The position numbers and the translations under genes are program-made. Below the pieces are notes generated by a model, which worked only from the letters and a program-made list of their open reading frames with translations, was not told the origin of the DNA and did no database searches. Positions 42,048 to 60,121 of a DNA stretch of 64,000 bases are shown one piece after another. The DNA lies in contig CP030158.1 of the NCBI GenBank assembly GCA_003285105.1, forward strand, positions 851,447 to 915,446, read 5' to 3'. How positions within the stretch are numbered: position 1 is the first letter of the stretch; every line of letters starts with the position of its first letter. This stretch comes from Roseithermus sacchariphilus (GTDB lineage: Bacteria > Bacteroidota > Rhodothermia > Rhodothermales > MEBIC09517).

Positions 42048-42082
42048 CGCGAAGCGTGACGCCTTCCCTCCTTCTTCACACA

Positions 42083-42118
42083 GGGCATCCGGGCCGCCCC
42101 CGGGTGCCCTTTTTTTCA
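42083..42118 (+). terminator. Rho-independent terminator.
   Basis: Hairpin GGGCATCCGGG ccgcc CCCGGGTGCCC followed by TTTTTTT, 36 nt after the stop of the preceding gene. Confidence 0.75.
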
Positions 42119-42150
42119 GCGGTCAGCTTTCAGCGATCAGCTTTTCTTAT
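42111..42150. repeat. Short heptamer run (GGTCAGC/TTTCAGC/GATCAGC) of the same family as the 26.4-kb and 62.55-kb arrays.
   Basis: Seen directly: tttttcagcggtcagctttcagcgatcagcttttc. Confidence 0.7.
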
Positions 42151-42172
42151 CCTGACGGCTGTCCCTCACCCC

Positions 42173-44056
42173 ATGAAAACATCGAACCCGATGCGTGTCG
42201 TTTGTTACGGGTGGATCGCCGGGCTTCTCCTCATGGCCGTGCTGGCCGGGAGCGTCCGGGCCCAGTGGCGCCTGGATCGCGTCACCGTGTACCCGAAGGA
42301 AGAATTCCGCGGCGCCTGGATTGCGACGGTGAACAACCTGGACTGGCCCCGCACCACCTCGACCTCCGCGCAGCAGGCCGAGCTGGTGGCGCTGCTGGAC
42401 GGGCTGAAGGCGGCCGGGATCAACGCCGTGTTTTTCCAGATCCGCCCGGCGTGTGATGCCTTCTACGCGTCCTCGTACGAACCCTGGTCGGCCTGGCTCA
42501 CCGGCACGCAGGGGCAACCCCCCGAGCCTTTTTACGACCCCCTCGCCTTTGCCATCGAGGAGGCCCACAAACGCGGGATGGAACTGCACGCGTGGTTCAA
42601 CCCCTTCCGTGCCGTCATCGGCAGCGCGCCGCTGGCCGACACCCACATCGCCGAGACGCATCCCGAATGGATCCTGGAATTCGACGGCCTGGAGATCCTC
42701 AACCCCGGCATCCCGGACGTCCGCAGCTACATCGCTGACGTCATCATGGACGTCGTGACGCGGTACGACGTCGACGGCGTGCACTACGACGACTACTTCT
42801 ATCCCTACCCGCCCAACCAGATCACCAACGAGGATCAGGAGACGTATGCCACCTATGGCGGCGGGTTCGCCAGCATCGACACCTGGCGGCGCTACAACAT
42901 CAACATGTTCGTCCGCACCGTGCACGAGCGCCTCACGGCGTATGAGGCCGAGACGGGCCGCGTCGTCAAGCACGGCGTCAGCCCCTTCGGCATCTGGAAG
43001 AGCGGGGTCCCCTCGGGCATCCGTGGGCTCTCGGCCTACGACGTGATCTACGCGGACGCGCCGAACTGGCTGGCGCAGGAGTGGATCGACTACCTCGTGC
43101 CGCAGCTCTACTGGCCCTTCGGCGGCGGGCAGGACTACGGCAAGCTCGCGCCGTGGTGGGCCACGCAGATGAACGGGCGCCATCTCTACCCCGGACACGG
43201 ACTGTACCGCGCCGACCGCAACACGTACAGTTCCGGCACGCTGTTCGCCGCCGACGAGGTCCCGCGGCAGGTGCGGTTCAACCGGGCGCAGGACGGCATC
43301 CACGGCAGCGTCTTCTTCCGCGCACTCAACCTCACCCGCTACCGCTCCAGGGGCTTCGCCGACAGCCTCCGCACCGACCTGTACCGTTACCCGGCGATTC
43401 CGCCCTCGATGGCGTGGAAGGACCTGACGCCGCCCCCCGCGCCCGACGCGCTGACCTTTACCTGGACGGCCGACGACGAGGTGACGCTCGACTGGGCGCC
43501 GCTACCGGCCAAGACGGGCCAGGCCGCACCGTGGCGCTATGCCGTCTACCGCGTCCGCAGCAGCACCCCGCCGGACGTCGCCACGGTGCAGCAGGACGCC
43601 CGGAATCTGCTTGCCGTCACCGGCGGCACCTCGCTCACCGACCGTCCCGGCCTGGCCGACGAGCCGTACTACTACTTCGTCACCGCGCTGAGCGGCAACT
43701 CGGTGGAGAGCGAGCCGAGCCCGCTGGTCAGCGTCGAAGGCCGGGCCGTATCCACCGAGCCCGTGACCCTGCCGGTGGCCTTCGTGCTGGAGCCGAACTA
43801 CCCGAACCCCTTCAACCCGAGCACCGAGATCCGCTTCACGCTGGCCCGGTCGGCTTCGGTGACGTTGACCGTCTACGACGCCCTCGGCCGGGAGGTCGCC
43901 CGGCTGGTGGACGGCCAGCACCTCGCGGCGGGGCCGTACGCCGTGCGCTGGGACGGCACCGACGCCCATGGCCGGCCGGTGAGCAGCGGCACGTACTTCT
44001 ATCAACTCACCGACGGCACGCACCGCCAGACCCGCTCGATGGTGCTGGTCAAGTAG
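42173..44056 (+). CDS. Glycoside-hydrolase-like-10 (GHL10/DUF4015-type TIM barrel) protein with an Fn3-like domain and a T9SS C-terminal domain.
   Basis: Signal peptide. FRGAWIATVNNLDWP...GINAVFFQIRP...HAWFNPF. C-terminal LEPNYPNPFNPSTEIRFTL...GTYFYQL... CTD. Confidence 0.7.
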   Translation: MKTSNPMRVVCYGWIAGLLLMAVLAGSVRAQWRLDRVTVYPKEEFRGAWIATVNNLDWPRTTSTSAQQAELVALLDGLKAAGINAVFFQIRPACDAFYASSYEPWSAWLTGTQGQPPEPFYDPLAFAIEEAHKRGMELHAWFNPFRAVIGSAPLADTHIAETHPEWILEFDGLEILNPGIPDVRSYIADVIMDVVTRYDVDGVHYDDYFYPYPPNQITNEDQETYATYGGGFASIDTWRRYNINMFVRTVHERLTAYEAETGRVVKHGVSPFGIWKSGVPSGIRGLSAYDVIYADAPNWLAQEWIDYLVPQLYWPFGGGQDYGKLAPWWATQMNGRHLYPGHGLYRADRNTYSSGTLFAADEVPRQVRFNRAQDGIHGSVFFRALNLTRYRSRGFADSLRTDLYRYPAIPPSMAWKDLTPPPAPDALTFTWTADDEVTLDWAPLPAKTGQAAPWRYAVYRVRSSTPPDVATVQQDARNLLAVTGGTSLTDRPGLADEPYYYFVTALSGNSVESEPSPLVSVEGRAVSTEPVTLPVAFVLEPNYPNPFNPSTEIRFTLARSASVTLTVYDALGREVARLVDGQHLAAGPYAVRWDGTDAHGRPVSSGTYFYQLTDGTHRQTRSMVLVK

Positions 44057-44955: not shown

Positions 44956-47193
44956 ATGCGAGGCACACTACGCATCATCGCGCTGCTGCTGGGGAGTGGC
45001 CTGTTCGCGGTCGCCGGCCGGGCCCAGGGCGTCATCGTCCTGCCGGATCGACACCCGGCCCCGCTGGAGCTGCGCACCCACCGGGTGGACGCCCGGATCG
45101 AGGACGAGATCGCCGTCGTCACCGTCACGCAGACGTTCTACAACCCCGGCGGCGGGACCGTCGAGGGGACGTTCCTGTTTCCGCTACCGCCGGGGGCGCA
45201 GGTCTCCCGCTTTTCGATGACGGTGGACGGCAGGGAGATGACCGGCGAACTGCTGGAGGCCGACGAGGCCCGGGCCATCTACGAGGAGATCGTCCGCCGC
45301 AGCCTCGACCCGGCCCTGCTGGAGATGGCGGATTACCGCACCTTCCGGGCGCGCATCTTCCCGATTCCGGGCCGGGCCGAACGCACCATCACGCTGCGCT
45401 ATGACGCCGCCCTGGAGCGGGAGGGCGACCTCGTCACCTTCCGGTACCCGATGCAGGGCCACCTCGCCACCCGCCATACCGGCGCCGTGCCGCTGCCGCG
45501 CCCCATCGACCCGCGCTGGCCGCAACCGGAACGCCCCGACGCGCCCGACGCCGTCCCGACCGAGAGCACCGTCCATATCACGCTGGCGACGAGCACCGGG
45601 CTGACCAACGTCTACTCGCCCTCGCACGAGGTGCGCGTAGACCGGTCGGGCCGTCGGACGGCCACGGTGACGCTGGAGCAACCCCGCCTGGACGGGCGCG
45701 ATTTCGTGCTCTACTACAGCCTCGACCCGAGCCCCCTCGGCGCGACGCTGCTTGCCCACCGCCCCTACGGCGATCGCCCCGGCTACTTCCTGCTGCTCGT
45801 CTCGGCGCCGGCCGAGCTCGACGAGGCCCGCATCCCGCCGAAGGACATCGTGTTCGTCCTGGACACCTCCGGTAGCATGGCCGGGGAGAAGATGGCGCAG
45901 GCCCGCGAGGCCCTGCGCTACTGCCTCCAGCGCCTCGGCCCGCACGACCGCTTCGGGCTCGTCGCCTTCAGCTCGGACGTGGACGCCTTCCGCGATTCGC
46001 TCGTGACGACCGCCATGCGGGACGACGCGCTGTTCTTCGTCGACCAGCTCGAAGCGCGCGGCGGCACGAACATCAACGCGGCGCTGCTGACGGCCCTGGA
46101 GATGCTGGACGACAGCGACCACGGCCAGGTCATCTTCCTCACCGACGGGCTCCCGTCGACCGGTGTGCGGGACGAAGGCCAGATCCGCCGGAACGTCGCC
46201 GAGGCCAACGACGGCGGCGTGCGGCTCTTTGCCTTCGGCGTCGGCTACGACGTCAACACGCGGCTGCTCGATGGGCTCTCGCAGGCCACGGGCGCCTTTG
46301 CCGACTACATCTCGCCCGAGGAACACATCGAGGAACGCATCGGCGCGTTCTACGACAAGGTGCGCTTCCCGGTGATGACCGACCTCGCGCTGGAGGCCGA
46401 CGGCGGAGACGTCTTCGCCCTGACGCCGGGCACGTTGCCGGACCTCTACCGGGGCGGGCGGCTGCTGGTCGCGGGGCGTTACCGGCAGCCGGGCGACCTC
46501 CGCCTCACGCTGCGCGGCCGCCTTGGCGATGCAGCCGAGACGCTGCGGTACACCTTCGAACTGCCGCGCATCGAGCGCGAGCGGGACTTCGTCGCCCGGC
46601 TCTGGGCCACGCGGCGCGTCGGGGCGCTGCTGGACGAGATGCGCCTCCACGGTGAGAACGAGGAGCTGAAGGAGGAGGTCATCGCCCTCGCCAGGGAGTT
46701 CGGCATCGTCACGCCCTATACCTCCTACCTCGTGACGGAGGATGAAGCGCTGGCGGTGCACCCGCCGGGCACGCCGCGTGGAGGCCCGGCCAGGCCTCTG
46801 CGGTTCGATGCCGCCGCTCCGACGGCAGACCTCCGCGCCACCAGCGGCGAGGAGGCCGTGGCCATGAGCAAGGCCACCCGCGCCATGCAGGAAGCCGAGG
46901 TCGTCGCCCCGGCGGCACCGTCGGTCCTGACCACCGTCCTCGGCCGGACGCTGCGCCGGATGCCAGACGGCGCCTGGGCCGACGTCGACGCCGACCCGGA
47001 GGCCGCCGACGCCGTTCGCATCGCGTTTGCCTCGGACGCGTACTTCGCGCTCCTGCGGCTCCATCCCGAGCTGCGCGAAGCGGCCCGGCTCGGCCCGCAC
47101 GTCACCATCGCGTTCCGGGGTCGCGTCCTGGTGATCGCGGAAGACGGGGAGAACCTGTCCGAGACGGCGCTGCGGCAGGCGTTCGGCGGGTGA
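44956..47193 (+). CDS. Secreted VIT-domain plus von Willebrand factor A domain protein.
   Basis: Signal peptide. The N-terminal domain has a VIT-like profile. vWA MIDAS motif VFVLDTSGSMAG...TNINAAL...IFLTDGLPSTG. Confidence 0.8.
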   Translation: MRGTLRIIALLLGSGLFAVAGRAQGVIVLPDRHPAPLELRTHRVDARIEDEIAVVTVTQTFYNPGGGTVEGTFLFPLPPGAQVSRFSMTVDGREMTGELLEADEARAIYEEIVRRSLDPALLEMADYRTFRARIFPIPGRAERTITLRYDAALEREGDLVTFRYPMQGHLATRHTGAVPLPRPIDPRWPQPERPDAPDAVPTESTVHITLATSTGLTNVYSPSHEVRVDRSGRRTATVTLEQPRLDGRDFVLYYSLDPSPLGATLLAHRPYGDRPGYFLLLVSAPAELDEARIPPKDIVFVLDTSGSMAGEKMAQAREALRYCLQRLGPHDRFGLVAFSSDVDAFRDSLVTTAMRDDALFFVDQLEARGGTNINAALLTALEMLDDSDHGQVIFLTDGLPSTGVRDEGQIRRNVAEANDGGVRLFAFGVGYDVNTRLLDGLSQATGAFADYISPEEHIEERIGAFYDKVRFPVMTDLALEADGGDVFALTPGTLPDLYRGGRLLVAGRYRQPGDLRLTLRGRLGDAAETLRYTFELPRIERERDFVARLWATRRVGALLDEMRLHGENEELKEEVIALAREFGIVTPYTSYLVTEDEALAVHPPGTPRGGPARPLRFDAAAPTADLRATSGEEAVAMSKATRAMQEAEVVAPAAPSVLTTVLGRTLRRMPDGAWADVDADPEAADAVRIAFASDAYFALLRLHPELREAARLGPHVTIAFRGRVLVIAEDGENLSETALRQAFGG

Positions 47194-47262
47194 GCGGAGA
47201 GCGGAGAAGGGAGCGCACGCTTCCTGCCGGCGCCCCCTCGCTCCGCTCGCCGCTTCGCCTCA
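47194..47262. terminator. Possible bidirectional terminator (imperfect long inverted repeat) between convergent genes.
   Basis: GTGAGCGGAGAGCGGAG...CGCTCCGCTCGCCGCTTCGCCTCAC lies between the stops of the vWA gene (+) and the CHRD gene (-). Confidence 0.35.
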
Positions 47263-49839
47263 CTTCAGCAGCACCATCGAGCGGGTTTCCTGGAAGGGGC
47301 CGGCGTCGAGGCGGTAGAGGTAGAGCCCGCCGGGCAGGCCGGCCGCGTCGAAGGACACGCGGTGGAGGCCCGAGGCCATCGGGCGGTCGACGAGCGTGGC
47401 GACGCGGCGGCCGAGCACGTCGAAGACGGCGAGGGAGACGTGCGCGGTGTGGGGCAGGGTGAAGGCGATGGTCGTCGCCGGGTTGAACGGGTTCGGGTAG
47501 TTCTGCGCCAGCGCGAACCGCTCCGGCACCTCGCCGGCCGGATCGGCGACGTCGGTGACGACGACGGCCTGCGGGCGGATCTGCCCCCTCACCTCGCCGG
47601 CGCCGTAGTCGGTCGTGTGCACATTCAGGTAAAGCCGCCCCTGCAGGAAGTCGGTGACGGCGTCGGTCGTCAGCGGCTCGGTGGCGTCGGTCGGCCGCCA
47701 GAGGCCGGTGGCGGTGGCGCCGTCGAACGTGTCGAAGATCCCCCGCACGACCCCGCCGTTTTCCCCGGCCGCGCCCCGGTGGACGTGGGCGTTCGTGACG
47801 GCGCTCGTCAGATCCGCCACCGTCAGCCCGTAGCGGATGCCGGCCTCCGAGAACGTCAGGGCCGCCGTCCCCCGGCCGTCGCTGACGACGTCGTGCACCT
47901 CCTGGTCCGGGCTCAGGTCCATCGCCACCCCGAAGCCGTCGCTCGCCAGCACCTGCCCGCGGATCTCGCCACCCGGATGGGCCGCGGTGTGGACGTTCAG
48001 GTAGAGGCGGCCCAGCAGCAGGTCCGCGATGGCCTCGGCCGTCAACGGCTCCGTGGCGTCGGTCGGCCGCCAGAGGCCGGTGGCGGTGGCGCCGTCGAAC
48101 GTGTCGAAGATCCCCCGCACGACGCCGCCGCTCACGCCGAAGGCGCCCTGGTGGAAGTGGGCGTTGGCCACGTCCGCGCTCAGGTCGGCGACGGTGAGGC
48201 GGTAGATGAGCCCGTGCGGCGTCAGCGTCATCGCCGCCGTGCCGCTGCCGGTGCTTTCGGTACCGGCCTGCGCCGGGGTCAGCCGCGCCTGCAGGCCGGT
48301 ACCGCTGCTCGGGACGACCTGCCCGCGGATCTCGCCGCCGGGGTGCGCGGCGGTGTGGACGTTCAGGTAGAGGCGGCCCAGCAGCAGGTCCGCTATGGCC
48401 TCATCCGTCAGCGGCTCCGTGGCGTCGGCGAAGCCCCAGGTGCCGCTTGCCGTGTTGCCGGTGAACGTGTCGAAGATCTCCCGCACGACGCCGCCGCTCT
48501 CGCCGGCGGCTCCCCGGTGGAAATGCGCATTCATCACGGCCCCCGTCAGGCCGCTCACCGTCACCTGATACGCCAGGCCGTCGTCACCCAGCGTCATCGT
48601 CGCCGTGCCGAGGCCGGTGCCATCGACGCCGGCCTGCGTCGTCGTCAGCGTCGCGGTCAGGCTGGTGCCCTCGTTCGGCAGCACCTGCCCGCGGATCTCG
48701 CCGCCGGGGTGCGCGGCGGTGTGGATGTTCAGGTAGAGCCGGCCCTGCACCAGGTCGGCAATGCGATCGGGCGTCAGCGGCTGCGCATCGGTCGGGCGCC
48801 AGAGGCCGGCCGCGGTGGTACCGTCGAAGGCGTCGAAAATGCCGTGGGCGACGCCGCCGCTCTCGCCGGCAGCGCCTTCGTGGAAGTGGGCGTTGGTGAT
48901 CGGGCCGCTGAGTCCGTCCACCGTGAGGCGGTAGACGAGCCCGTGCGGCGTCAGCGTCATCGCCGCCGTGCCGGTGGCGCCGACGCCCGTGCCGGCCTGC
49001 TCCCCGTCGAGCCGGGCGGAGAAGCCCCATCCCCCCGAGAGCAGCACCTGCCCGCGGATCTCGCCACCCGGATGGGCCGCGGTGTGGATGTTCAGGTAGA
49101 GGTTGCCCAGCAGCAGGTCCGCCACGGCCTCGTCCGTCAGCGGCTCCGTGGCGTCGGTCGGCCGCCAGAGGCCGAAGGCGGTGTTGCCGTCGAAGGTGTC
49201 GGCGATGCCGCGGACGACGCCGCCGCTCTCACCGAAAGCCCCCCGGTGGAAATGCGCATTCGCCACGGGCCCCGTCAGGTCGGCGACGGTCACGAGGTAG
49301 ATCAGGCCGGCGTCCGTGAGGTGCATCGCCGCCGTGCCGCCGGCCGTCCCCTCGACGCCCGCCTGCGCGGTCGTCAGCGCGGCGCTCAGCGCGGTGCCGG
49401 CCGAGGGCACCACCTGCCCGCGGATCTCGCCGCCGGGGTGCGCGGCGGTGTGGATGTTCAGGTAGAGCCGGCCCTGCAGGAGCGCCGTCATGGCCGCCTC
49501 GTCCAGCGGCTGCGCGTCGCTCGGACGCCACAGGCCGATGGCGGTATGGCCCGTGAAGTCGTCCAGGATCCCCCGCACGACGCCGCCGCTCTCGCCGGGG
49601 GCGCCGGCGTGGAAGTGGGCGTTGGTGATCGGGCCGGAGAGGCCGTCCACCGTGACGATGAACCGCAGCCCCTCGTCGGTCAGCGCCAGGGCCGCCGTGC
49701 CGGAAGCGCTTTCGGCCTCGGTGCCGGCCTGCGTCGGGGTGAGATGGGCGGTGAAGAAGGTCTGGGCCGTGGCCGGACGCGCGGCGAGCAGCGTCGTCAG
49801 GGCCATCAGCAGGAGCGGGAGGACGTAGCGAACGGGCAT
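47260..49839 (-). CDS. Secreted protein with six tandem CHRD domains and a T9SS C-terminal sorting domain.
   Basis: Six repeats of about 130 aa: ...TNAHFHxGAxGESGGVVRGIxDxFxGxTAxGLWRPxDAxPL...LYLNxHTAAHPGGEIRGQV. C-terminus LAQNYPNPFNPATTIAFTL...GLYLYRL... Confidence 0.8.
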   Translation of the reverse strand: MPVRYVLPLLLMALTTLLAARPATAQTFFTAHLTPTQAGTEAESASGTAALALTDEGLRFIVTVDGLSGPITNAHFHAGAPGESGGVVRGILDDFTGHTAIGLWRPSDAQPLDEAAMTALLQGRLYLNIHTAAHPGGEIRGQVVPSAGTALSAALTTAQAGVEGTAGGTAAMHLTDAGLIYLVTVADLTGPVANAHFHRGAFGESGGVVRGIADTFDGNTAFGLWRPTDATEPLTDEAVADLLLGNLYLNIHTAAHPGGEIRGQVLLSGGWGFSARLDGEQAGTGVGATGTAAMTLTPHGLVYRLTVDGLSGPITNAHFHEGAAGESGGVAHGIFDAFDGTTAAGLWRPTDAQPLTPDRIADLVQGRLYLNIHTAAHPGGEIRGQVLPNEGTSLTATLTTTQAGVDGTGLGTATMTLGDDGLAYQVTVSGLTGAVMNAHFHRGAAGESGGVVREIFDTFTGNTASGTWGFADATEPLTDEAIADLLLGRLYLNVHTAAHPGGEIRGQVVPSSGTGLQARLTPAQAGTESTGSGTAAMTLTPHGLIYRLTVADLSADVANAHFHQGAFGVSGGVVRGIFDTFDGATATGLWRPTDATEPLTAEAIADLLLGRLYLNVHTAAHPGGEIRGQVLASDGFGVAMDLSPDQEVHDVVSDGRGTAALTFSEAGIRYGLTVADLTSAVTNAHVHRGAAGENGGVVRGIFDTFDGATATGLWRPTDATEPLTTDAVTDFLQGRLYLNVHTTDYGAGEVRGQIRPQAVVVTDVADPAGEVPERFALAQNYPNPFNPATTIAFTLPHTAHVSLAVFDVLGRRVATLVDRPMASGLHRVSFDAAGLPGGLYLYRLDAGPFQETRSMVLLK

Positions 49840-49889
49840 GGGAGGAACGGGTCTGGTTGGGAGAGATGGGGAGGATCGGCGGGCACGGC

Positions 49890-50483
49890 TCAGTCCGTGC
49901 CGGCCACCGGCAGAGACGCCCGGATCGTCGCCTCCAGGTCGATCGTCGGGCGGATGGGCATGAGCAGCAGCTTCGGGCGGTCGACGCCGTACGCGTCCAG
50001 CGAAACCTCGAAGACGCTGCGGGCCTCGAACGTCGCGCCGGTGACGGTGACCTCCACGGGGATCGTGAGGGGGTGCGTCTGCCCGTGGAACGTCAGCCGG
50101 CCCTCGACCTGCCAGGTACCCTGCCGGCCCTGGTCCGTCGTCTCCCAGGATGCGGCCGTGATGCGTTCCGAGACGAAGCGCACCGTGGGGTAGCGATCGG
50201 CCTCGACGACGTCGAGCATGTTCGAGTCGCGGTTGCCGTTGCCGCTATCGAAGCTCTCTACGGGCACCTCGATCTCGACGCGGCTCCGGGCGGGGTCATC
50301 CAGGTCCAGCACCAGCGCGCCGGTCACGGCCCGGCTGACGCCGGTCCAGTCGTGCAGGCGGTGATGCCCGGTGTAGGCCAGCGTGCTCTGCCCGGTATCG
50401 ACGGGTACGGAGACGGGCTGGGCGAGGGCCGGCACGTAGAGCAGCAGGCCGAGCACGGCGCGGGCAAGGGCTCGGAGGCGCAT
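49890..50483 (-). CDS. yceI: YceI-like periplasmic protein (polyisoprenoid-binding lipocalin fold).
   Basis: Signal peptide. YceI-family motifs ...TLAYTGHHRLHDWTGVSRAVTGAL...TFHGQTHPLTIPV... Confidence 0.8.
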   Translation of the reverse strand: MRLRALARAVLGLLLYVPALAQPVSVPVDTGQSTLAYTGHHRLHDWTGVSRAVTGALVLDLDDPARSRVEIEVPVESFDSGNGNRDSNMLDVVEADRYPTVRFVSERITAASWETTDQGRQGTWQVEGRLTFHGQTHPLTIPVEVTVTGATFEARSVFEVSLDAYGVDRPKLLLMPIRPTIDLEATIRASLPVAGTD

Positions 50484-50486
50484 GGG

Positions 50487-51209
50487 TCAGTAGGGCAGGA
50501 AGATGGACAGGATGGCGGTGGTGTAGGCGGCCAGCGTGATCCGGCCGGCCCAGCGGTGCTGCGCGAGGCGCCGGTCGTAGGTGGCGCCCGTCGCCTCGCT
50601 GAGGCGGACGCCGAGCCAGGGCTGGAGGGCCATGCCGGCGAAGTGCACGACGGCGAGCCAGCGATGCAGCCGGACCGAGCTGAAGCCGCTGCGGTACACC
50701 CGCCCCGGCGGTGCGAAGAGCGACAGGCTGGCCGTGGTCATGTAGGCACCGAAGGTGGCATACCCCAGCGGGCGGTGGATCGGGCGCAGGTCGTTGTAGT
50801 ACCGCGCCGGGTTGCGGGCCATCAGCTCGCCCAGAACCACCTGCGTGGTCAGCGCGCCGAAGGTCAGCAGCCCCATGCGCTGGTGCCACTGGAGCATGGC
50901 GCGGCGCAGCCGCAGCTCGCCGCGCCGCGTCGAGGGCGCCAGGCCGAGGGTGCGCATGAGCCCGCGCCGGCCCCACAGCAGCCGCGTCCGCAGCGGCATC
51001 CCGTCCGGCAGGCTGTCGGCGTCGGGAACCGCCCGGGCGGTCGGGCCCGCCACGGGCGGGCGTAGAGCAGGAGACCGGGCCCACGCCGCCGTGACGGGCA
51101 GGCCGACCAGCCGGGCCGTCGGCTCCGGCGGTGACGGAGCCGGTGCCTGGGCCACCGCCCACGCCGGGGCGAGGCTGCCGCAGACGATCAGGAAGAGGAG
51201 CACACGCAT
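50487..51209 (-). CDS. Polytopic membrane protein, possibly a b-type (cytochrome b561-like) partner of YceI.
   Basis: 240 aa with an N-terminal signal or transmembrane helix and several hydrophobic helices containing conserved-looking His residues (WHQRMG, IHRPLGY, HRWLAVVHF). Position between the Rieske and yceI genes. Start taken at the internal Met of ORF 50487..51647. Confidence 0.4.
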   Translation of the reverse strand: MRVLLFLIVCGSLAPAWAVAQAPAPSPPEPTARLVGLPVTAAWARSPALRPPVAGPTARAVPDADSLPDGMPLRTRLLWGRRGLMRTLGLAPSTRRGELRLRRAMLQWHQRMGLLTFGALTTQVVLGELMARNPARYYNDLRPIHRPLGYATFGAYMTTASLSLFAPPGRVYRSGFSSVRLHRWLAVVHFAGMALQPWLGVRLSEATGATYDRRLAQHRWAGRITLAAYTTAILSIFLPY

Positions 51210-51220
51210 GGAGGGCCGCG

Positions 51221-51688
51221 TCAGCTTTTGGTGATGACGACGGTGTTGCCGTCGCGGGACACGGCGTACTCGGTCAGCGGCGCGCTGGCCGGGCCCTGCA
51301 CCACCTGCCCGCTCGTGTTGAAGCGCGAGCCGTGGCAGGGGCAAACCATCGCATCGTTCTGGAAGGCGTTGACGTCGCACTGCTGATGCGTGCAGACGCT
51401 CGTGAAGGCCCGGATCGTCTGGCCGTTCACGTTGATCGCCACGGTCTTCGCCGCCTGGATGAACAGAAAGCCGCCGGCCTGCGCCAGCACGTTGGCCTGC
51501 GTGCCGGTCAGGTCCAGCGTGATCGTGTTGCCGCTGATCGTGATGCCGGATTCCGGGGACGGCGGATCTTCCGTCTCCTCCTCCATGCCGCTGCTGTCGC
51601 AGCCCGTCAGGCTCCAGCCCATGGCGAACAGCGCCGCCGAGCAGCACGAGGTGCGAAGAAAGTCGCGTCGGGAAGCGTGGTGATCCAT
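51221..51688 (-). CDS. Tat-exported Rieske [2Fe-2S] protein.
   Basis: Twin-arginine signal SRRDFLRT. Lipobox-like LTGC. Rieske boxes CTHQQC...CPCHGS. Confidence 0.85.
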   Translation of the reverse strand: MDHHASRRDFLRTSCCSAALFAMGWSLTGCDSSGMEEETEDPPSPESGITISGNTITLDLTGTQANVLAQAGGFLFIQAAKTVAINVNGQTIRAFTSVCTHQQCDVNAFQNDAMVCPCHGSRFNTSGQVVQGPASAPLTEYAVSRDGNTVVITKS

Positions 51689-51984
51689 TGGAGAGGGTGG
51701 GGTCGGGTGAACAGGGACGAACGCGGGTTCGAAGCGCGGTTGCCGCGGCGCTTCACACGGACAGTACCCACCCCGGCCGGGATGACTACCTGTGGCAACG
51801 GATTTTTTCGAGGGGGCGAGAACGACGGGGAGGCGTCTGGGGCGCCTGGCCCGGGGGGAGGTGCCCGGCGCTTCCAGGTCTGTTGAGTCCGTAATCCTGT
51901 GTAAAAGTGGCGTGGCATAGAGAAGGCCACCGCGTTCCGCCAGGTTTGGGTGTGTTCAACGCAACCAAACCCCAGCGACCCACG

Positions 51985-52150
51985 ATGGCCCACCTACAGC
52001 TTACCCTCGACGAGACAAAGGTCCAGGACCTCCTGCGCGGCGACAAGCCGATGCGTCGCCTGCTGGAAGCACTCCTCAACGAAGTGTTGCAAGCCGAACG
52101 GACCGAACACCTGCACGCGGCCCCCGGCGAGCGCACCGAAGCGGGTCCGC
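51985..52150 (+). pseudogene. IS256-family (mutator-type) transposase N-terminal fragment.
   Basis: MAHLQLTLDETKVQDLLRGDKPMRRLLEALLNEVLQAERTEHLHAAPGERTEA matches the conserved IS256 transposase N-terminus. Similarity is lost after about 55 aa and no catalytic region follows. Confidence 0.6.
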
Positions 52151-52252
52151 GTTTTTCGCCGGGCAGTTGCTCCGCGCTACCGTTCGCGATGGGCTTGAGG
52201 AAGCAGGCTCGCGTGCCATGGGCCGGTTATGCGCAAGCCGTTAGCCGGCTGA

Positions 52253-52486
52253 AGAAAACATGCTGCAGCCTGGAGAAAACGCATCACGATCAATCCGAAG
52301 CAGTGTGGTGGTCGGCCCTGCATCCGCGGCATGCGCATCCGGGTGATTGACGTGCTAGAGTTGCTCGCAAGCGGGCTTTCACGTGACCAAGTCCTCGAAG
52401 AGTTGCCCGATCTGGAGCCGGAGGACATTGAAGCGGTGCTTCGCTACGCGAGTCGCCGGCTCGGCCACCCTGTGCTGGCGGCATGA
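52253..52486 (+). pseudogene. DUF433-family antitoxin, apparently 5'-truncated (no canonical start upstream of the conserved core).
   Basis: In-frame translation RITINPKQCGGRPCIRGMRIRVIDVLELLASGLSRDQVLEELPDLEPEDIEAVLRYASRRLG matches the DUF433 core. The open frame begins right after a TGA and has no ATG/GTG/TTG before the core. The only ATG (52331) would remove the CGG-PC motif. The stop overlaps the next ATG (ATGA). Confidence 0.55.
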
Positions 52487-52824
52487 TACGTTGGATCGAT
52501 GCCCAACTCTCTCCGGCGTTGGCGCCGTGGATTGGAGCGCATTTCCGAGAGATCGAGGCGTTTTCGGTGCGCTATCTCGGGTTGCAAGAGGCGGAGGATC
52601 GGGAGATTTTTGAGGCCGCCCGTGCAGCCGGCGCAGTTGTCATGACGAAGGACAGCGATTTTGTTCAGATGCTGGAGCAGTACGGGGCGCCTCCGAAAGT
52701 GATCTGGATTACGTGCGGCAACACGTCCAACGTACGGATGCGTGAGATTCTGAGCGTTTCACTTGAACGAGCGATTCAGCTTTTGACAAGCGACGATCTG
52801 GTGGAGATCAGTGACTCACCATAA
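52483..52824 (+). CDS. DUF5615 (PIN-like / Mut7-C-like) putative toxin partner of DUF433.
   Basis: 113 aa. ...EAFSVRYLGLQEAEDREIFEAARAAGAVVMTKDSDFVQM... Typical DUF433-DUF5615 gene pair with a 4-bp overlap. Confidence 0.7.
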   Translation: MIRWIDAQLSPALAPWIGAHFREIEAFSVRYLGLQEAEDREIFEAARAAGAVVMTKDSDFVQMLEQYGAPPKVIWITCGNTSNVRMREILSVSLERAIQLLTSDDLVEISDSP

Positions 52825-52972: not shown

Positions 52973-55900
52973 TCACCGCAGGAGCACCGCCTGCCCGGTG
53001 CGAACCTCCTGCCGTCCGCCGGTGCGTAACTGCACGCGGTACAGGTAGACGCCCGTCGGGAGCGTACCGGCCTCGAAGACCACGTTGTACCACCCGGCCA
53101 CCTGCATCCCATCCACCAGCACGGTCACCTCACGCCCCAGCAGGTCGTACACGGCGAGGCGTACGCTACCCGCCTCCGGCAGCCCGTAACGGATGGTCGC
53201 GCGCGGATTGAACGGGTTGGGGTAGCTGCCCACCAGCGTCAGCGCCGCCGGCAGCTCCACGCCTGCCCCTGAGGGCCCCTCGGTGCCCGTGCCCACGCCA
53301 AAGTCGCCGCTCGCCTCGGCGACGGCCTGCCGGCCGCACGAGTTGGTGATGACCACTTCGTAGGCAAAGGCTGCTGCGCCGTCGCTGGTCAGACGGAAGC
53401 CGGCCCAGCGGCGGGGCGTCGCTGTCGTCTCCCAGATGTAGTCGCCTGTGGAGGCCTCCAGGGCGGTGCCGGTCGTAGCAGCCGTCAGCCCGTCCAGCCG
53501 GCGGGTCGTGGTGCCGGCCTCTACGAAGTGGACCGACGTCAGCGTGGCCCCGCGCCCGGCGTCGACATCGAGGTCGAGATACGGGCGGGGCGTGGCCTCG
53601 GGCTCTAGCTGCTGGCGGACGATGGACGGCAGCGGACACGTCGCGGGAGCCGCATCGGCCCGGGGCCGGGTGTAGAGATAGGCTGTGCCGGTGATCGCCA
53701 GGCCGTCGGGGTCGTTGCTGTTGGGACTACCGACCAGCGCGGCCTCGTCGGACACCGCCACGGTCGTGCCGAAGAGCGCGAAGGCCGCCGGCGTGCGTGG
53801 CGACAGCTGCATCGTCTCGGTGGCGGGCCACACGCCGCCCCGCCGGGCGTAGAGGTAGGCCGCGCCCGCGTCGGTGCCCCCGGCATCGCGGCGGCTCGCC
53901 CCCACCACCACGACCGACCCGGCCACGGCGACGGAGGTGCCGAAGAGGTCCCCCGCGCCACGCGCCGAGGCCCCCAGCCGGGTCACCGTGGCCTTGCTCC
54001 ACAGACCGGCAGCCGGACGCTCGAACACATAGGCCGCACCGGCATCCAGACCGGCATTCAGGTCGTCCTCCCGATCCGCGCCCACCACGAGCACGTTGCC
54101 CGATACGCTCACGGCACCGCCAAAAAAAGTGCGGGGCGCAGGAGCGGGTGCGGTCAGCTTGGTGACACTCGCCTCGGCCCACGTTCCGCCCTCGGGCTTC
54201 TCGAAGACATACGCCGCCCCCGCCCGGGCTCCTCGCTCGCTGTCCTGGCTGGCCCCGACGGCCAGCACGTTGCCCGACACGGCCACCGCTACGCCGAAGT
54301 ACTGGTCGCTCACGCCATCGGGCGCGGTCAGCTTGGTCTCGGTCGCCTTGGCCCAGGTGCCCCCCTCGGGTTTCTCGTAGACATACACGGCACCGGCATC
54401 GGTCGCCGGGTCATCATCCAGGCGCGCACCGACGGCGATCACGTTGCCCGACACCGCGACCACCTCGCCATAGACATCGCCCTCCTCCCAGTCGGACGCA
54501 CGTAGCTGAGTAGCCTCGGCCCACGTCCCGTCGGCCTGCCGCTCGAAGACGTGGACCAGGCCGCCCGTCACGAAACGCCCCCCTACGACGAAGACGCGGG
54601 CACCGACGACGATCACGTCGTCCGTCGCCGCCACCACGCTGCCAAAGCCTTCGCTGATGCTCGGTGTGGCGGCGTACAGCTTGGCCGTCCGGGTCGCTGC
54701 CGCCCAGGTGCCGCGGGCCGGCTTCTCGTAGACGTACACGGAGCCGGAACCCGGCACGTTGTCGTCGTCGCCGGGCGCCCCGATGACCGCGACCCGATTC
54801 GCAAGCGCCACCGACGTCCCGAACCGGTCGGTCACGTTGCGGTCGGCCGCGAGGAGTTGCAGGGGCTCGTCACCGCCCGGCAGCGGCAGGTCGCTCGGGT
54901 CGGGCACGTCCACCTCATCGTCCTTGCCGTCGGCAAGAGCGGGGGCCTCACAGCCTGCGCCGTTGCGGCGGATGGCGACCGTGCCGGGGGGCTCGGGGTT
55001 CCGCACGAAGGGCCGGAAGATCCGGCACCCGGTGAGCCGCGGGTTGTCCTGCACGACGAGATGCCGGCCCGCCGTCGCGCCGAGGTTCTCGGGGGCCTCG
55101 GGCGCGGTCAGCACACCCGCGAGGCCCGCCGGACTGGCGAGCACGGGGTTCTGTGCGATCAGCAGGCCACCGCCGATGCGGGTGATGTTCTCCAGGCCTT
55201 CCAGGCTCGTCAGGGCCGGGTTCCGGGTGATGCGCACGAACCCGCCGACCGACGTGAGACCTCCCAGCCCGACCAGTGTCCCCAGGGTGGCGTTGCCTGC
55301 AACCACCAGGTTGCCCCCGGCTGAGGTGCTGTCCTCAAAGCCTGCCGCTTCGTCCATCATCGCCGTGGCCGGGACCGCCCGCAGGACGGAGGCGGTGCCC
55401 CTGGCCCTGGCCGCCGAGCCCCCCGGCCGGTTGTCGATAATGCGGATGCTGCCACCCACCGCCGTGAGACGGCTCAGAGCGGCCAGGCTCGCGAGGTTGC
55501 TGTTGCCTTCGATGACCAGGTCGCCCCCGATCGTGGCAAGCCCCTCCAGGCCCGTCAGGTCTTCTACGGCGGTGCCTTCAATTCGCACGTCGCCCGCCAC
55601 GCTCAGGAGGGCGCCGAGGCCGCTGAGGTCCGTGACGGCGGGGCCTTCGATCCGCAGGCTCCCGAGCACCTGATCCGCGCCACTCGCGGCAAAATCGTCA
55701 AGCCCGGCCTGGTCGGTGAGCGTCATGTCATCCTTTTCGTCCGGGGGGTTGGTAATGGCCTCGGCATCGCATCCAACGCCGTTGCCCGTGAGCACAATGA
55801 CACCCGGCGGCGTGGCGTTGGCGAGGTAGGGGCGCAGCACCTCACAGTCCATGAGCGCCGGGTTGGTTGTCACGATGAGATGGTCGCCCGCCGTCGCGCC

Positions 55901-58900
55901 GAGGTTGCCCGGAGCCCCGGGGTCGGCGGACAGGGTCGTCAGCGCCTTCAGGGTCGTCAGCACGACGTTCGACGTGATACGCAGCGCCCCGCCCACGGCG
56001 ATCAGCGACTCCAGGCCGGACAGCGCCGTGAGCTTGGCGTTTTCGGCGATGTGCACGAGCCCCGTCACGGCGAGCAGCCGATCCAGGCCCTCCAGGGTGG
56101 CGAGCGAGGCGTTCTTCTCGATGATCAGGTCGCCGCCGACGGAGACGAGGCCGTCCAGCCCCGCCAGACGCTCCAGGGAGAGGGCACCGGTGATGACCAG
56201 ATCGCCGCCCACATGCGTCAGCGTCTCCAGGCCACCCAGACTCGTGACGCCGGCGCCCTCGATGCGAAGCGTGCCGGTGATCTCGCGGTAGCCGTTGGCC
56301 GCAAAGGCGTCGAGCGCCGCCTGGTCGGTGAACGTGACGTCGCCGTCGAACACGTCGTCCTCGCTGGCGGGGTCCTCGGCCGCCAGGATGCTCTTGTAGT
56401 CACACCCCACGCCGTTGCCGCTGACGCGCAGGGGGCCGGGGCGACGGGGATTGGTGAGATACGGCTTCAGCAGGCCGCAGTCCGTCAGGCTGGGGTTATC
56501 CTCCAGGACGAGGTGGTCGTCCAGCGCAATCGACGTGGCGGTAAACGGGTCGGGGTGCACGCCGATGTTGCCCGGGGCCGCGTCGTCCGTCGCCAGGGCG
56601 GCCAGCGGCGCCAGGCTCGTCAGCGCGTCGTTGCCGGCGATACGCAGCGCCCCGCCGATCGACGTGATCCCGTCGAGGCCGTCCAGGCTCGTCAGCAGGG
56701 GGTTGTCGGCCACCTCCAGGCTGCCCTCCACCGACGTGATCCAGTTGAGTCCGCGGAGGCTCTGGAGAGCCGGGTTGCGGGCGATCACCATGTACCAGCC
56801 CAGCGTCGTTCCCGTCGCCGTCGCCGAAGACCCTCCCTTGCCGGCGCGCCCTGCCCTGTCGCGACCCACAGCGACGCCGTGCATCCAGTCGGTGACGACC
56901 TGCACGTCCGGAGACCTCAACGCGCTGCTGACGCGCGGCGTGAAGGGTTCGAACGAGAGCGGGGTGCCGTCGTTGTCCAGGATGACGACGTAGGCATTCG
57001 TATCGGCGACGGCGACCACGGACCCCAGGCTTTCCAGCGTCTCCAGCGGACCATTCGACACGATCGTGATGCCGAAGCCCACGTCGGTGACGCCTTCAAG
57101 GCCGCGCAGGCTCGTCAGCGCCGGGTTGTAGGCGATGCCGAGGCCGCCGAGCGTCGTGACGCCGGCCAGCGCCTCGATGTTCTGGAGCGTCTCGTTGGCA
57201 TAGAGGACGAGGCCGCCGTCCGCCCGGGTGAGCGCCTCCAGGCCCGTCAGCGTTTCACAGGCACCGTTGCCGAAAACCACGACGCCGCCCCCCACCGTGG
57301 CCACCCACTCCAGGCCGCGGAAATCCGTCAGCGCCGGATTGCCGGTGATGTTGACATCGCCCTGCACGTCGTACGTCGTCGTGCCGGAGGTGCCCGGCAC
57401 CACCCGCAACGGCGTCGGCACCAGGCGCGGCGTCACGTCGCTCAGGAACCCGGGGCCTGCCTCCCTGAGGCGGTCGGCGCGGCCGCGGTGGCCCTCGGTG
57501 GCGAAGGGGGGCAGGGCGCCCACCCCGGGGTGTGCCGCCGGGCCGGCCGCCTGCTCCAGCGGCGTCCCATCATCGTTGAAGCGCACGACGCCGTCGTTCA
57601 ACTGGACCAGCAAGGACGCGCCTACGGCATCGAGGGTGAGAAGGCTGGAGAGGGTCGCGATCGGGCCGTTGAAGACGATGTACAGGTAGTCCTCCACCGA
57701 CGTGAGCGACGCCAGCCCCGCGAGGTCCGTCAGCGCCGGGTTGGCATAGATCAGCAGGCTATGGTCGTCCTCCGTCGGCGCCTCGACGTTCCCGACCACC
57801 TTCAGGGATTCGAGGCCGTCCAGACGGGTCAGCGCATGGTTGATGCCCACGTAGACCGTCCCGCCCACCGCGCTGAGCGCCCCCAGCCCCTCCAGGCTCT
57901 GAAGCTTCTCGTTGTAGAGCACGTAGACGAGGCCTCCCACAGAGGTGAGCCCATCCAGCCCCGCCAGACTGGTCAGGGAGGTATTGTCCAGGATGAGCAG
58001 GTCGCTTTCGAGGGACGGGATGTGCTCCAGGCCGGCCAGACTCGTGAGGCGGGGGTTCCCCTGGAGCGCAAGGCCCCCGAGGCTGGTCAGGGACGGCAAG
58101 GCACCCAGACGCTCCAGCGCTTCATTGAACCCCAGGATAAGTTGCCCGCCGACGCTCGTGAGGGCATCCAGGCCGTCCAGGCTGGTGAGCCGGTCGGCCT
58201 CCGAGATGGTCAGCGACGCACCGACCGTGACGAGCGATGGCAAGGCGGACAGATCCACGAGGTCATTCTCCACGAGCGTCAGGTTTCCGCCGACCCGTTG
58301 CAGGGACTCCAGCCCGGCCAGCGTCGTGAGCGCCGGATGGTACGCCATGCGCAGATCACCGGCGACCGTCTTGAGGCTACGCAGGGCTTCCAGGCTCTGG
58401 AGCGACGGGTTGCTCTCGATGAGGACACCGCCGACGGTGGACAGCGGGCCCAGACCGGCCAGGCTCACCAGCTGGTCGTTGGTCTGAACGGTCAGCTCAC
58501 CGCCGATCCACGCCATGGAGGCCAGCCCGGTCAGGTCTGTGAGGAGGTCGTTGCCCACCACCTCCAGGTTGCCTTCGACCGACGCGATCTGGTCCAGCCC
58601 CGTCAGGCTCGCCAGCTGGCCGTTGTTCCGGACGATCAGGTTGCCCCCCACGCTCGCGACCGACGCCAGCCCCGACAGGTCCGTGATGTCGGGTCCACTG
58701 ATGAAGAGGTCGCCCGTGATTTCCGTGGTCCCCTGCGCAGCAAACGCCGTGACATCGGCCTGGCTGAACAGGTCGACGTTGCCCGCCAGCGCCTCGTTCA
58801 GGATGCCGGCTTCGTCACACCCCTCGGCATTGCCGCTGATCTCGATGGGTCCGGGTGGTGCGGCGTTGCTGACATACGGCTCCAGCACGCCACAGCGCGC

Positions 58901-59944: not shown

Positions 59945-60121
59945 ACGACGTACCGATGGGTAGCGAAAAATAGGGCTGTTCACTATGTATAGCGTTTTTT
60001 CGAGCGCCGAATGGTCACCCGTTCGGGAACCTGGAAAACGACCCCGGTGCATCGCTATAACCTGGCTCGACCCGGGCCTTATGCGGCATAGGCCAAAGTA
60101 GAGCTCAGCTCATGAAGGCTG

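Follow-up and report, generated by a model that had tools for sequence, protein, structure and literature searches.

A Rieske, predicted dihaem membrane protein and YceI gene module from Roseithermus sacchariphilus and its relatives: a putative periplasm-facing redox system

Lipocalins of the YceI/BcnA type and their partner b561 cytochromes are widespread. The genes lcoA (encoding a b561 cytochrome) and bcnA (encoding a YceI protein) are linked or fused across Proteobacteria, and their mutants show more lipid peroxidation; the authors of that work proposed that the cytochrome re-reduces a quinone bound by YceI (PMC9113575). A YceI protein of Neisseria binds ubiquinone-8, and binding of isoprenoids or quinones is established for YceI relatives (PMC9113575). 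CybB is a four-helix superoxide:quinone oxidoreductase (PMC11869295). Here, we describe a related arrangement in a stretch of 64,000 nucleotides from Roseithermus sacchariphilus (contig CP030158.1, positions 851,447 to 915,446; hereafter the window), in which the genes of a Rieske iron-sulfur protein, a small membrane protein and YceI (hereafter the trio) stand in a row and are followed by the gene of a secreted protein with six CHRD domains. The pairing of YceI with a cytochrome is already known, so that the other cytochrome family and the Rieske protein are a new part and not a new category. The addition of a Rieske centre was called unusual in a short earlier note made from the sequence of this stretch, and literature searches indeed found no paper that describes such an addition, links YceI with Rieske proteins or describes this cytochrome family; nor did searches on YceI with Rieske, extracytoplasmic function (ECF) sigma factors, heavy metal or copper bring up a published description of the trio.

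The genes of the membrane protein and YceI stay together wherever their neighbourhood could be read. A scan of one genome per GTDB species gave 27 loci, 26 of them testable for yceI, and five further loci were taken from Fibrella aestuarina, a metagenome-assembled genome of Chloroherpetonaceae, two contigs and the cultured Rhodothermus marinus; with the window included, the totals are 32 testable loci and 33 trio loci inspected. By tblastn and open reading frame (ORF) analysis, yceI lies directly after the membrane-protein gene in all 26 testable GTDB loci, mostly at a distance of 0-12 bp, and the same adjacency is found in 32/32 testable loci overall, on the strength of which chance adjacency was rejected. 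The Rieske gene is adjacent in 22/32 loci and occurs in two gene orders. It is directly 5' of the membrane-protein gene in the Rhodothermales (7/7 loci), and the window's order, with the Rieske gene first, recurs in Fibrella, Chloroherpetonaceae, loci L118 and L119 and R. marinus; in Marinimicrobia it is directly 3' of yceI in 9 of the 18 testable loci. The CHRD gene follows the trio in 3 of 33 loci (the window, L001 and L002) and is absent beside it in R. marinus, Fibrella, Chloroherpetonaceae and all Marinimicrobia loci. These counts define the conserved unit as the cytochrome plus YceI, usually with the Rieske protein, and make the CHRD gene a lineage-specific addition, so that the expectation that all four genes are conserved together holds for the membrane-protein gene and yceI, largely for the Rieske gene, and not for the CHRD gene. 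The Rieske/membrane protein/YceI module spans at least four lineages, namely Rhodothermales, Cytophagales, Chloroherpetonaceae and Marinimicrobia.

The membrane protein had been placed in the position of the cytochrome b561 YceJ. The position is right, as its gene sits before yceI with the same 3-bp gap as yceJ in E. coli, but the protein is not a YceJ homologue. It gave no match to the prokaryotic cytochrome b561 family PF01292 at E <= 0.01, and the profile of its family aligned with E. coli YceJ at an hhalign probability of only 35% (E = 4e-4); homology with YceJ/CybB was therefore rejected. The sole Pfam match at threshold is to the eukaryote-type cytochrome b561 family PF03188 (24.0 bits against a cut-off of 23) and spans half of the profile (positions 65-130 of 137), while a match to Ferric_reduct stays below threshold. 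Among 24 relatives, weak matches were seen to PF03188 (21/24, counted at E <= 0.1, the best 3.7e-7), Ferric_reduct (12/24) and PF01292 (5/24). The protein belongs to a separate small family, marginally nearest to eukaryote-type b561. Close relatives are few: a set of 5.8 billion proteins holds 45 clusters of them at 90% identity, from Rhodothermales and Marinimicrobia. A profile search of 1.84 billion representatives (50% identity) returned 793 clusters at E <= 1e-3 and 455 at E <= 1e-10, and the wider family takes in Fibrella (Cytophagales) and Chloroherpetonaceae. The best 150 matches measure 103-313 aa, mostly 200-300 aa, the shorter ones covering the profile in part. Source names were looked up for 10 clusters, and all read 'hypothetical protein' save one UniRef entry, 'cytochrome b561 domain'.

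Within this family the candidate haem ligands are nearly fixed. The window protein is laid out as a signal peptide, a variable linker, a conserved amphipathic motif and four transmembrane (TM) helices, and in its AlphaFold2 (AF2) model, with a predicted local distance difference test score (pLDDT) of 81.9, a helix for the signal peptide and a disordered variable linker are followed by four long helices. Four His residues, H109, H182, H189 and H218, are invariant in 40/40 members down to 25% identity, as are W79, G83, R86, R102, Y156, P167, P168 and M193; position 145 is His in 35 of the 40 and Lys in the other five. H109, H145, H182 and H218 lie in TM1, TM2, TM3 and TM4, respectively, each at the N-terminal end of its helix in the AF2 model, which brings H109 and H182 to the same face and H145 and H218 to the opposite one. 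When TM1-2 were aligned with TM3-4 by hhalign (95.9% probability, E = 5.8e-9), H109 paired with H182 and H145 with H218, and by this alignment the protein is an internal duplication of a two-helix hairpin. The paired His ligands on which the idea of a b-type membrane protein had been made to depend are thus present, conserved and brought into register by the duplication, and the idea survives. We predict a pseudo-symmetric four-helix bundle that binds two b haems, each with a pair of His ligands and each close to a different face of the membrane. Four His on four consecutive TM helices, the mark of b561-type proteins, are found in the sequence. Eukaryote-type b561 proteins have six TM helices, and six were not found here, the AF2 model giving four long helices plus that of the signal peptide.

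The Rieske protein of the window begins with MDHHASRRDFLRTSCCSAALFAMGWSLTGCD, in which a twin-arginine translocation (Tat) signal is followed by a lipobox Cys with Asp at +2. On inspection, the Tat motif reads SRRDFLRT and the lipobox LTG-C-D, in the layout SRRDFLRTSCCSAALFAMGWSLTG-C-D; the Tat signal had been recognised before, and the lipobox had gone unmentioned. Both the Tat motif and the G-C-D lipobox are kept in all seven Rhodothermales orthologues. An Asp at +2 holds lipoproteins in the inner membrane of E. coli, and the protein is predicted to be a lipoprotein tethered to the periplasmic face of the inner membrane. Its cluster boxes, CTHQQC and CPCHGS, are of the bc1/b6f type with both disulfide cysteines included, and are kept as CTH..C and C[PFW]CH[GS]S in the seven Rhodothermales orthologues. 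In NCBIfam and the PDB, the protein is closest to b6f/bc1 Rieske subunits, with no equivalog match among PetC, QcrA and the bc1 iron-sulfur subunit (40-48 bits against cut-offs of 97-275), and the closest solved chain is 5cxm_A (110 aa, E = 5.9e-13), which we take to be cyanobacterial PetC3. Rieske centres of the bc type with Ser in CPCHGS lie around +100 to +300 mV; the window protein, which has this Ser but a Phe in CPCHGSRF, is presumably of intermediate to high potential. No partner cytochrome b gene lies beside the window Rieske gene, the adjoining membrane protein not being a cytochrome b, and a canonical bc complex was rejected because that protein has no homology with cytochrome b.

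The Marinimicrobia orthologues of the Rieske protein keep the RR and the Cys, and some of them depart from the usual form. Six whose genes lie 3' of yceI (L011, L012, L014, L015, L018 and L019) have lost both disulfide cysteines, with CTHQGV in place of CTHxxC, and show an odd C-x3-H spacing in box II (CAFGH, CSSGH). Two others, also encoded after yceI (L008:11080-11568 and L010:3709-4188), look circularly permuted: the CPCH box stands about 95 residues ahead of the CTHAGC box, and the ORF stops 9 residues past the latter.

The third member is readily recognised. The window YceI scores 90 bits against PF04264 (cut-off 23.7), is 23% identical to E. coli YceI (BLASTP E = 4e-10) and matches the solved YceI structures 5ixh, 7bwl and 1wub. 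The YceI fold is a lipocalin-like barrel, whereas CHRD has a fold like that of Cu,Zn superoxide dismutase (see below), and a comparison of the two folds, as suggested earlier, would therefore say little. The N-terminus, MRLRALARAVLGLLLYVPALA-Q, reads as a Sec signal, and the protein is probably a periplasmic lipocalin-like protein.

Taken together, a Rieske protein, a membrane protein with two predicted haems and a YceI protein might form a minimal Rieske/cytochrome-b-type quinol oxidase that feeds a periplasmic acceptor chain in organisms such as Rhodothermus, which use alternative complex III in place of bc1. Quinol would be held at YceI or at the conserved periplasmic surface and would hand over its two electrons in the manner of a quinol oxidation (Qo) site, the Rieske centre receiving one and the outer haem the other. 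Such a scheme would explain why the Rieske boxes are of the quinol-oxidising bc/b6f type, disulfide cysteines included, and why a predicted dihaem TM bundle is encoded next to them; W79, G83, R86, H109, P167, P168, H182 and H189, all invariant, lie on one side in the predicted four-helix topology, YceI relatives bind ubiquinone-8 (PMC9113575), and an independent CHRD×4 gene lies inside a genuine Rieske/cytochrome b/cytochrome c operon in locus L113. However, no cytochrome c, high-potential iron-sulfur protein or oxidase gene is linked to the trio, and the membrane protein has one His per helix, unlike cytochrome b, whose helices B and D carry two each. About a third of the loci lack the Rieske gene, the Marinimicrobia Rieske proteins mentioned above lack the disulfide cysteines, and control by an ECF sigma factor, described below, would be unusual for a core respiratory enzyme. 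We regard a quinol oxidase of this kind as quite improbable. A split Qo-type machine, in which YceI holds the quinol tail, the Rieske centre takes the first electron and the outer haem the second, passing it on across the membrane, with CHRD proteins acting as surface copper redox proteins, seems to us very improbable; if true, it would mean that components with no relation to cytochrome b had been assembled for bifurcated quinol oxidation.

Our tentative preference is for a three-gene periplasm-facing redox module that would work like LcoA/CybB-BcnA/YceI with an added Rieske relay. YceI is paired here with a cytochrome of a different family, which argues for the same kind of job as that of LcoA/CybB-BcnA. 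The dihaem protein would move electrons one at a time through the inner membrane, linking the menaquinol pool or the cytoplasmic side to its conserved periplasmic surface. At this surface, electrons would be exchanged both with the Rieske centre and with YceI, which would hold a hydrophobic redox ligand; an isoprenoid quinone or a product of lipid radicals is the most likely candidate. Tethered to the inner membrane and of moderately high potential, the Rieske protein would serve as an extra one-electron relay. The likeliest job of the whole would be to keep a periplasmic lipid-soluble reductant reduced and thereby to quench envelope radicals; the substrate may be such radicals or an imported metal chelate. 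The earlier suggestion of an electron-transfer or lipid-handling system thus stands for the trio, and its inclusion of the CHRD protein falls.

The regulation of the module was missed in the earlier note, both the linkage to an ECF sigma factor, FecR and a TonB-dependent transducer and the conserved promoter-like motif. The gene order in R. marinus, L003 and L005 is uvrB, ECF sigma, FecR, TonB-dependent receptor, Rieske, cytochrome, YceI and a convergent modCBA, the receptor carrying STN and CarboxypepD_reg domains. An ECF sigma gene, FecR and an STN-type TonB transducer stand directly upstream of the trio in L002, L003, L005 and R. marinus (L120). L001 shows only the transducer there, on a contig that begins about 730 bp ahead of it. 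Within the 64-kb window, no homologue of the ECF sigma or the TonB transducer was found. A bipartite motif, GGTAGTYAT-N13-GGGTACT, precedes the Rieske gene of the window in the form GGTAGTCAT-N13-GGGTACT and is the single match in 64 kb, with 0.00 expected from shuffles. The same motif occupies the same position 5' of the Rieske gene in L002 and L003. A second copy is located just 5' of the ECF sigma gene in L002, and the half-motif CGGGTACT precedes the sigma gene in L003, L005 and R. marinus. In R. marinus, the full sequence reads GGTAGGCAT-N13-GGGTACT ahead of the sigma gene, and the Rieske gene is preceded by GGTAGGCAT-N13-GGTGCTT. Auto-regulated promoters common to the sigma gene and its targets are the norm for ECF sigma factors, and the shared motif would therefore place the trio in the regulon of this one. 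We consider the motif a candidate ECF-sigma-dependent promoter, and the Rhodothermaceae module appears to be switched on by the adjacent FecI-type ECF sigma factor, which would sense through FecR and the TonB-dependent transducer. For the window, we infer that the operon kept its putative promoter and lost its regulator neighbours by a rearrangement marked by a transposase remnant.

Such regulators bring to mind metal uptake, and the trio could instead be a periplasmic metal-chelate reductase for an adjacent TonB-dependent transporter, resembling FoxB/FpvG. The dihaem protein would export electrons, the Rieske protein and YceI would handle an Fe(III) or Cu(II) complex, the reduced metal would be freed for uptake, and the His-rich, superoxide dismutase (SOD)-like CHRD×6 protein would capture metal or ligand outside the cell. 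The co-directional ECF sigma, FecR, STN-TonB transducer and trio of L002, L003, L005 and R. marinus, with the transducer and trio of L001, speak for this, as does the common promoter-like motif that puts the trio in the sigma regulon; L014 and L019, both from Marinimicrobia, also have a TonB-dependent receptor two genes ahead, and a CHRD×3 gene of Rhodothermus adjoins a DtxR-like repressor and a ZnuA/ABC-3 metal importer. The membrane protein family has weak matches to Ferric_reduct (12/24) and b561, whose eukaryotic members include ferric reductases (PMC9113575), and FoxB, an inner-membrane haem-containing siderophore reductase, offers a precedent (bioRxiv 10.1101/2021.01.28.428567). On the other hand, most loci have the strictly conserved core of cytochrome and YceI without a TonB receptor, the trio is not linked to any importer of ferrous or cuprous ions, and the known ligands of YceI are isoprenoids and quinones, not siderophores. 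The potential generally attributed to bc-type Rieske centres is too positive for the reduction of typical ferric siderophores, and the efflux adaptor beside the trio in L118 is Czc-like, for divalent metals without a redox step. We therefore hold a chelate reductase to be unlikely, although it is the main rival of the module that we prefer.

Elsewhere, the surroundings of the trio are diverse. In L118 (53-7586) it lies between a CusA/CzcA-family heavy-metal resistance-nodulation-division pump (TIGR00914, 1191 bits) with its CzcB-like adaptor and a TolC-like outer-membrane component. In F. aestuarina (L116), an ECF sigma gene is located near the trio, and between it and the Rieske gene is the gene of a 540-aa protein (L116:3638-5260) with no Pfam or NCBIfam match, which may be a novel anti-sigma factor for the regulator of the trio. 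Marinimicrobia contexts include a TonB receptor and esterases. The gene porD of the type IX secretion system (T9SS) stands directly after yceI in L117 (7319-8260; NF052317, 239 bits) and in L119 (6255-7211; Pfam DUF4835 match only), and this position is taken in the window by a T9SS cargo gene.

Several points weigh against the radical-quenching module that we prefer. The PF03188 score is barely at threshold, fold searches fail to tell haem bundles from other four-helix bundles, and the haem, the Fe-S cluster and the YceI ligand are predictions throughout the family. The side of the membrane protein that carries the conserved motif is the more positive one (net +3.2/+2.2 against -0.1/+0.7), which would favour cytoplasmic placement; a periplasmic position of the conserved face is suggested by the signal peptide and by the periplasmic partners, and the bias in Lys plus Arg argues the opposite. 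The Rieske protein is not obligatory, since ten Marinimicrobia loci have no Rieske gene within 10 kb. The neighbours of the trio vary widely (efflux pump, PorD, esterases), so that a single physiological theme is not proven, and genes linked to a sigma factor, FecR and a TonB transducer typically serve the uptake of nutrients or metals, not stress defence. Two other contexts of the stress type, the ECF sigma gene in Fibrella and the CusA/CzcA efflux operon in L118, were counted in favour of the module.

At the locus itself, the four consecutive minus-strand genes reported earlier were all recovered as ORFs, and their four identities proved correct (Table 1). Of the gaps, previously put at 11-50 bp, those of 11 bp (Rieske/membrane-protein gene) and 50 bp (yceI/CHRD gene) can be read from the DNA; the 3-bp gap between the membrane-protein gene and yceI had been missed. 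The close spacing fits an operon. No intrinsic terminator was found between the four genes, the single terminator-like match lying inside the Rieske ORF and below chance expectation, and a sigma-70 promoter scan of the locus returned nothing, as expected for this bacterial group. GC content is uniform over the cluster (0.72-0.73). The flanking genes encode unrelated secreted proteins, and about 18 kb around the operon hold three T9SS cargo genes, that of the CHRD protein included. Just upstream of the motif, where relatives hold the ECF sigma, FecR and TonB transducer genes, lies the transposase remnant (PF00872, 21 bits, profile positions 13-56 of 379).

Table 1. Features of the window, with two Rhodothermus CHRD loci for comparison
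Feature	Position	Strand	Length	Remarks
Rieske gene	51221-51688	minus	155 aa	Pfam Rieske E = 7e-13
Membrane-protein gene	50487-51209	minus	240 aa	begins at internal ATG of a longer mechanical ORF
yceI	49890-50483	minus	197 aa	Pfam YceI E = 2.5e-25
CHRD×6 T9SS gene	47260-49839	minus	859 aa	Pfam CHRD E = 4e-150, 6 stretches
Promoter-like bipartite motif	51763..51790	minus		75-102 nt 5' of Rieske ATG
VIT/vWA gene	44956-47193	plus		convergent, downstream of the four-gene cluster
GHL10 glycosyl-hydrolase-like T9SS protein	42056-44056	plus		
T9SS protein with Receptor-L/leucine-rich and FG-GAP repeats	52973-60052	minus	2359 aa	
IS256/Mutator-family transposase remnant	51934-52065	plus	44 N-terminal residues	within ORF 51907-52350
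DUF5615 gene	52483-52824	plus		beyond transposase remnant
CHRD×3-T9SS, DtxR-like repressor, ZnuA/ABC-3 metal ABC (ATP-binding cassette) importer	L108:6001-12140			Rhodothermus profundi
CHRD×3-T9SS, DtxR-like repressor, ZnuA/ABC-3 metal ABC importer	L110:6001-12066			

The fourth gene encodes a protein with a signal peptide, six CHRD repeats (PF07452, 492 bits) and a T9SS C-terminal sorting domain, which scores 23.7 bits with TIGR04183 (cut-off 23) and 24.1 bits with Pfam Por_Secre_tail, below the cut-off of 27. In the repeats, HxH, H, E and R are invariant. Repeat 1 was modelled with AF2 (pLDDT 92.2), and the model had Cu,Zn superoxide dismutases as its top Foldseek matches, although weakly (E = 0.025, probability 0.97, template modelling score ~0.5), and especially resembles a loop-deleted SOD core, the SOD1 variant minus loops IV and VII. 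This weak likeness is in line with the SOD-like structure that has been published for the CHRD domains of chordin (PMC13382577). The full set of Cu and Zn ligands is not kept in the repeats, in which only HxH, H and R are conserved, the NCBIfam SodC match stays at 35 bits against a cut-off of 250, and hhalign of the repeat profile with human SOD1 placed HFH on H46-V-H48 without significance (E = 0.29). Membership of the Cu,Zn superoxide dismutases was therefore rejected, the likeness being limited to the fold, and cell-surface metal binding by the repeats is plausible from their conserved residues.

Proteins of this type are common. Multi-CHRD T9SS proteins form more than 2,481 clusters at E <= 1e-10, typically with 3-4 repeats, and a metagenome scan with the full CHRD protein was swamped by the tail pattern, 79 of 80 loci being unrelated T9SS cargo. 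Seven CHRD contexts outside the trio were inspected. In two Rhodothermus loci, a CHRD×3-T9SS gene is directly 5' of a DtxR-like repressor and a ZnuA/ABC-3 importer, a neighbourhood that hints at a metal-related role of CHRD. An operon in L113 (5546-9923) encodes a PSCyt1 cytochrome c, a CHRD×4-T9SS protein, a Rieske protein (144 aa), cytochrome b (418 aa) and another PSCyt1 cytochrome c; its CHRD×4 gene is 8 bp from the next gene, which makes a second, independent CHRD-Rieske adjacency. The CHRD gene of L112 lies beside a cytochrome c gene, and in three of the seven contexts the neighbours are uninformative.

The earlier note had tied CHRD to the redox genes, but CHRD falls outside the conserved unit: its gene comes after the trio in three loci (the window, L001 and L002) and is found elsewhere in Rhodothermus. 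A four-component system, with CHRD×6 as an integral partner of the Rieske protein, the cytochrome b and YceI, would account for the 50-bp gap without a terminator between yceI and the CHRD gene, for the repetition of the four-gene order in L001 and L002, and for the CHRD genes inside the Rieske/cytochrome b operon of L113 and beside the cytochrome c gene of L112. It is nevertheless the least probable of the readings considered, for the CHRD gene occurs in 3/33 trio loci only, CHRD-T9SS proteins are far more numerous (more than 2,400 clusters) than close relatives of the membrane protein (45), and five of the seven other CHRD contexts have no redox neighbours. T9SS cargo also ends up outside the outer membrane, away from the periplasmic partners, and direct electron exchange with the trio is therefore unlikely. 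We propose that the CHRD×6 T9SS protein is a lineage-specific, co-expressed surface accessory and not an electron-transfer partner of the trio. The CHRD-redox link is anecdotal yet recurrent (three trio loci and one bc-type operon), and the SOD-like His triad suggests metal binding.

The significance of the trio lies first in what it says about YceI. That YceI is paired here with a different cytochrome family makes a good case for its need of a one-electron partner in the membrane, of whatever ancestry, and the added Rieske protein hints at the periplasmic chemistry, namely a one-electron step at fairly high potential. With its predicted haems, the membrane protein family would rank among the simplest natural counterparts of designed dihaem four-helix bundles. 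Both R. marinus and Fibrella aestuarina are in culture, which opens the system to direct study, and the link to the ECF sigma factor, FecR and the transducer offers a handle for induction.

Compared with known systems, the CHRD protein is like chordin in that its repeats match Pfam CHRD and chordin 9igm (E = 1.5e-10). It differs from chordin in keeping HxH, H and R, reminiscent of SOD copper ligands that chordin lost (PMC13382577), from the matched SODs in its shorter repeats (118 aa against about 150-160), which may reflect a missing zinc loop, and from both in its six tandem copies and T9SS tail. With the bc1/b6f complexes, the trio shares bc-type Rieske boxes encoded beside a (predicted) dihaem TM four-helix bundle, whereas it has no cytochrome b homology, another layout of haem ligands, a lipid-anchored and not helix-anchored Rieske protein, and no cytochrome c1 or f. 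PetC3 of cyanobacteria, in the account of Veit et al. 2016 as cited in PMC12341915, is like the trio's protein a small Rieske protein with a Tat signal and a lipid anchor at the periplasmic face of the inner membrane, outside a canonical bc/b6f complex; identity is low, the phylum is different, and PetC3 is not known to have dihaem or YceI gene partners.

FoxB/FpvG operons resemble the Rhodothermus trio in having an ECF sigma factor, FecR and a TonB transducer followed by a (predicted) haem membrane protein, with predicted electron delivery to the periplasm. Unlike FoxB/FpvG, the trio membrane protein lacks PepSY_TM homology, belongs to another fold family and has Rieske and YceI partners, and most trio loci have no transporter. 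Eukaryote-type b561 proteins (CYB561/Dcytb, PF03188; 4o6y) also carry His on four consecutive helices with one haem per face, as predicted here, and they too arose by hairpin duplication, as found for the trio membrane protein. The latter is bacterial, with four TM helices, a signal peptide, an extra invariant H189, scores at or below the gathering threshold and an operon shared with Rieske and YceI genes.

The closest likeness is with LcoA/CybB/YceJ and BcnA/YceI. The trio membrane protein departs from LcoA/CybB/YceJ in its family, its signal peptide and its conserved amphipathic pre-TM motif, and the trio departs from the LcoA/CybB-BcnA pair in adding a Rieske lipoprotein in two thirds of its loci, in being hosted by bacteria of the Fibrobacterota-Chlorobiota-Bacteroidota (FCB) group and, in Rhodothermaceae, in its linkage to an ECF sigma factor, FecR and a TonB transducer. 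In both, the gene of a small four-helix membrane protein of the dihaem type is immediately 5' of yceI, the linkage is kept over a wide phylogenetic distance, and a redox or stress role in the envelope is indicated.

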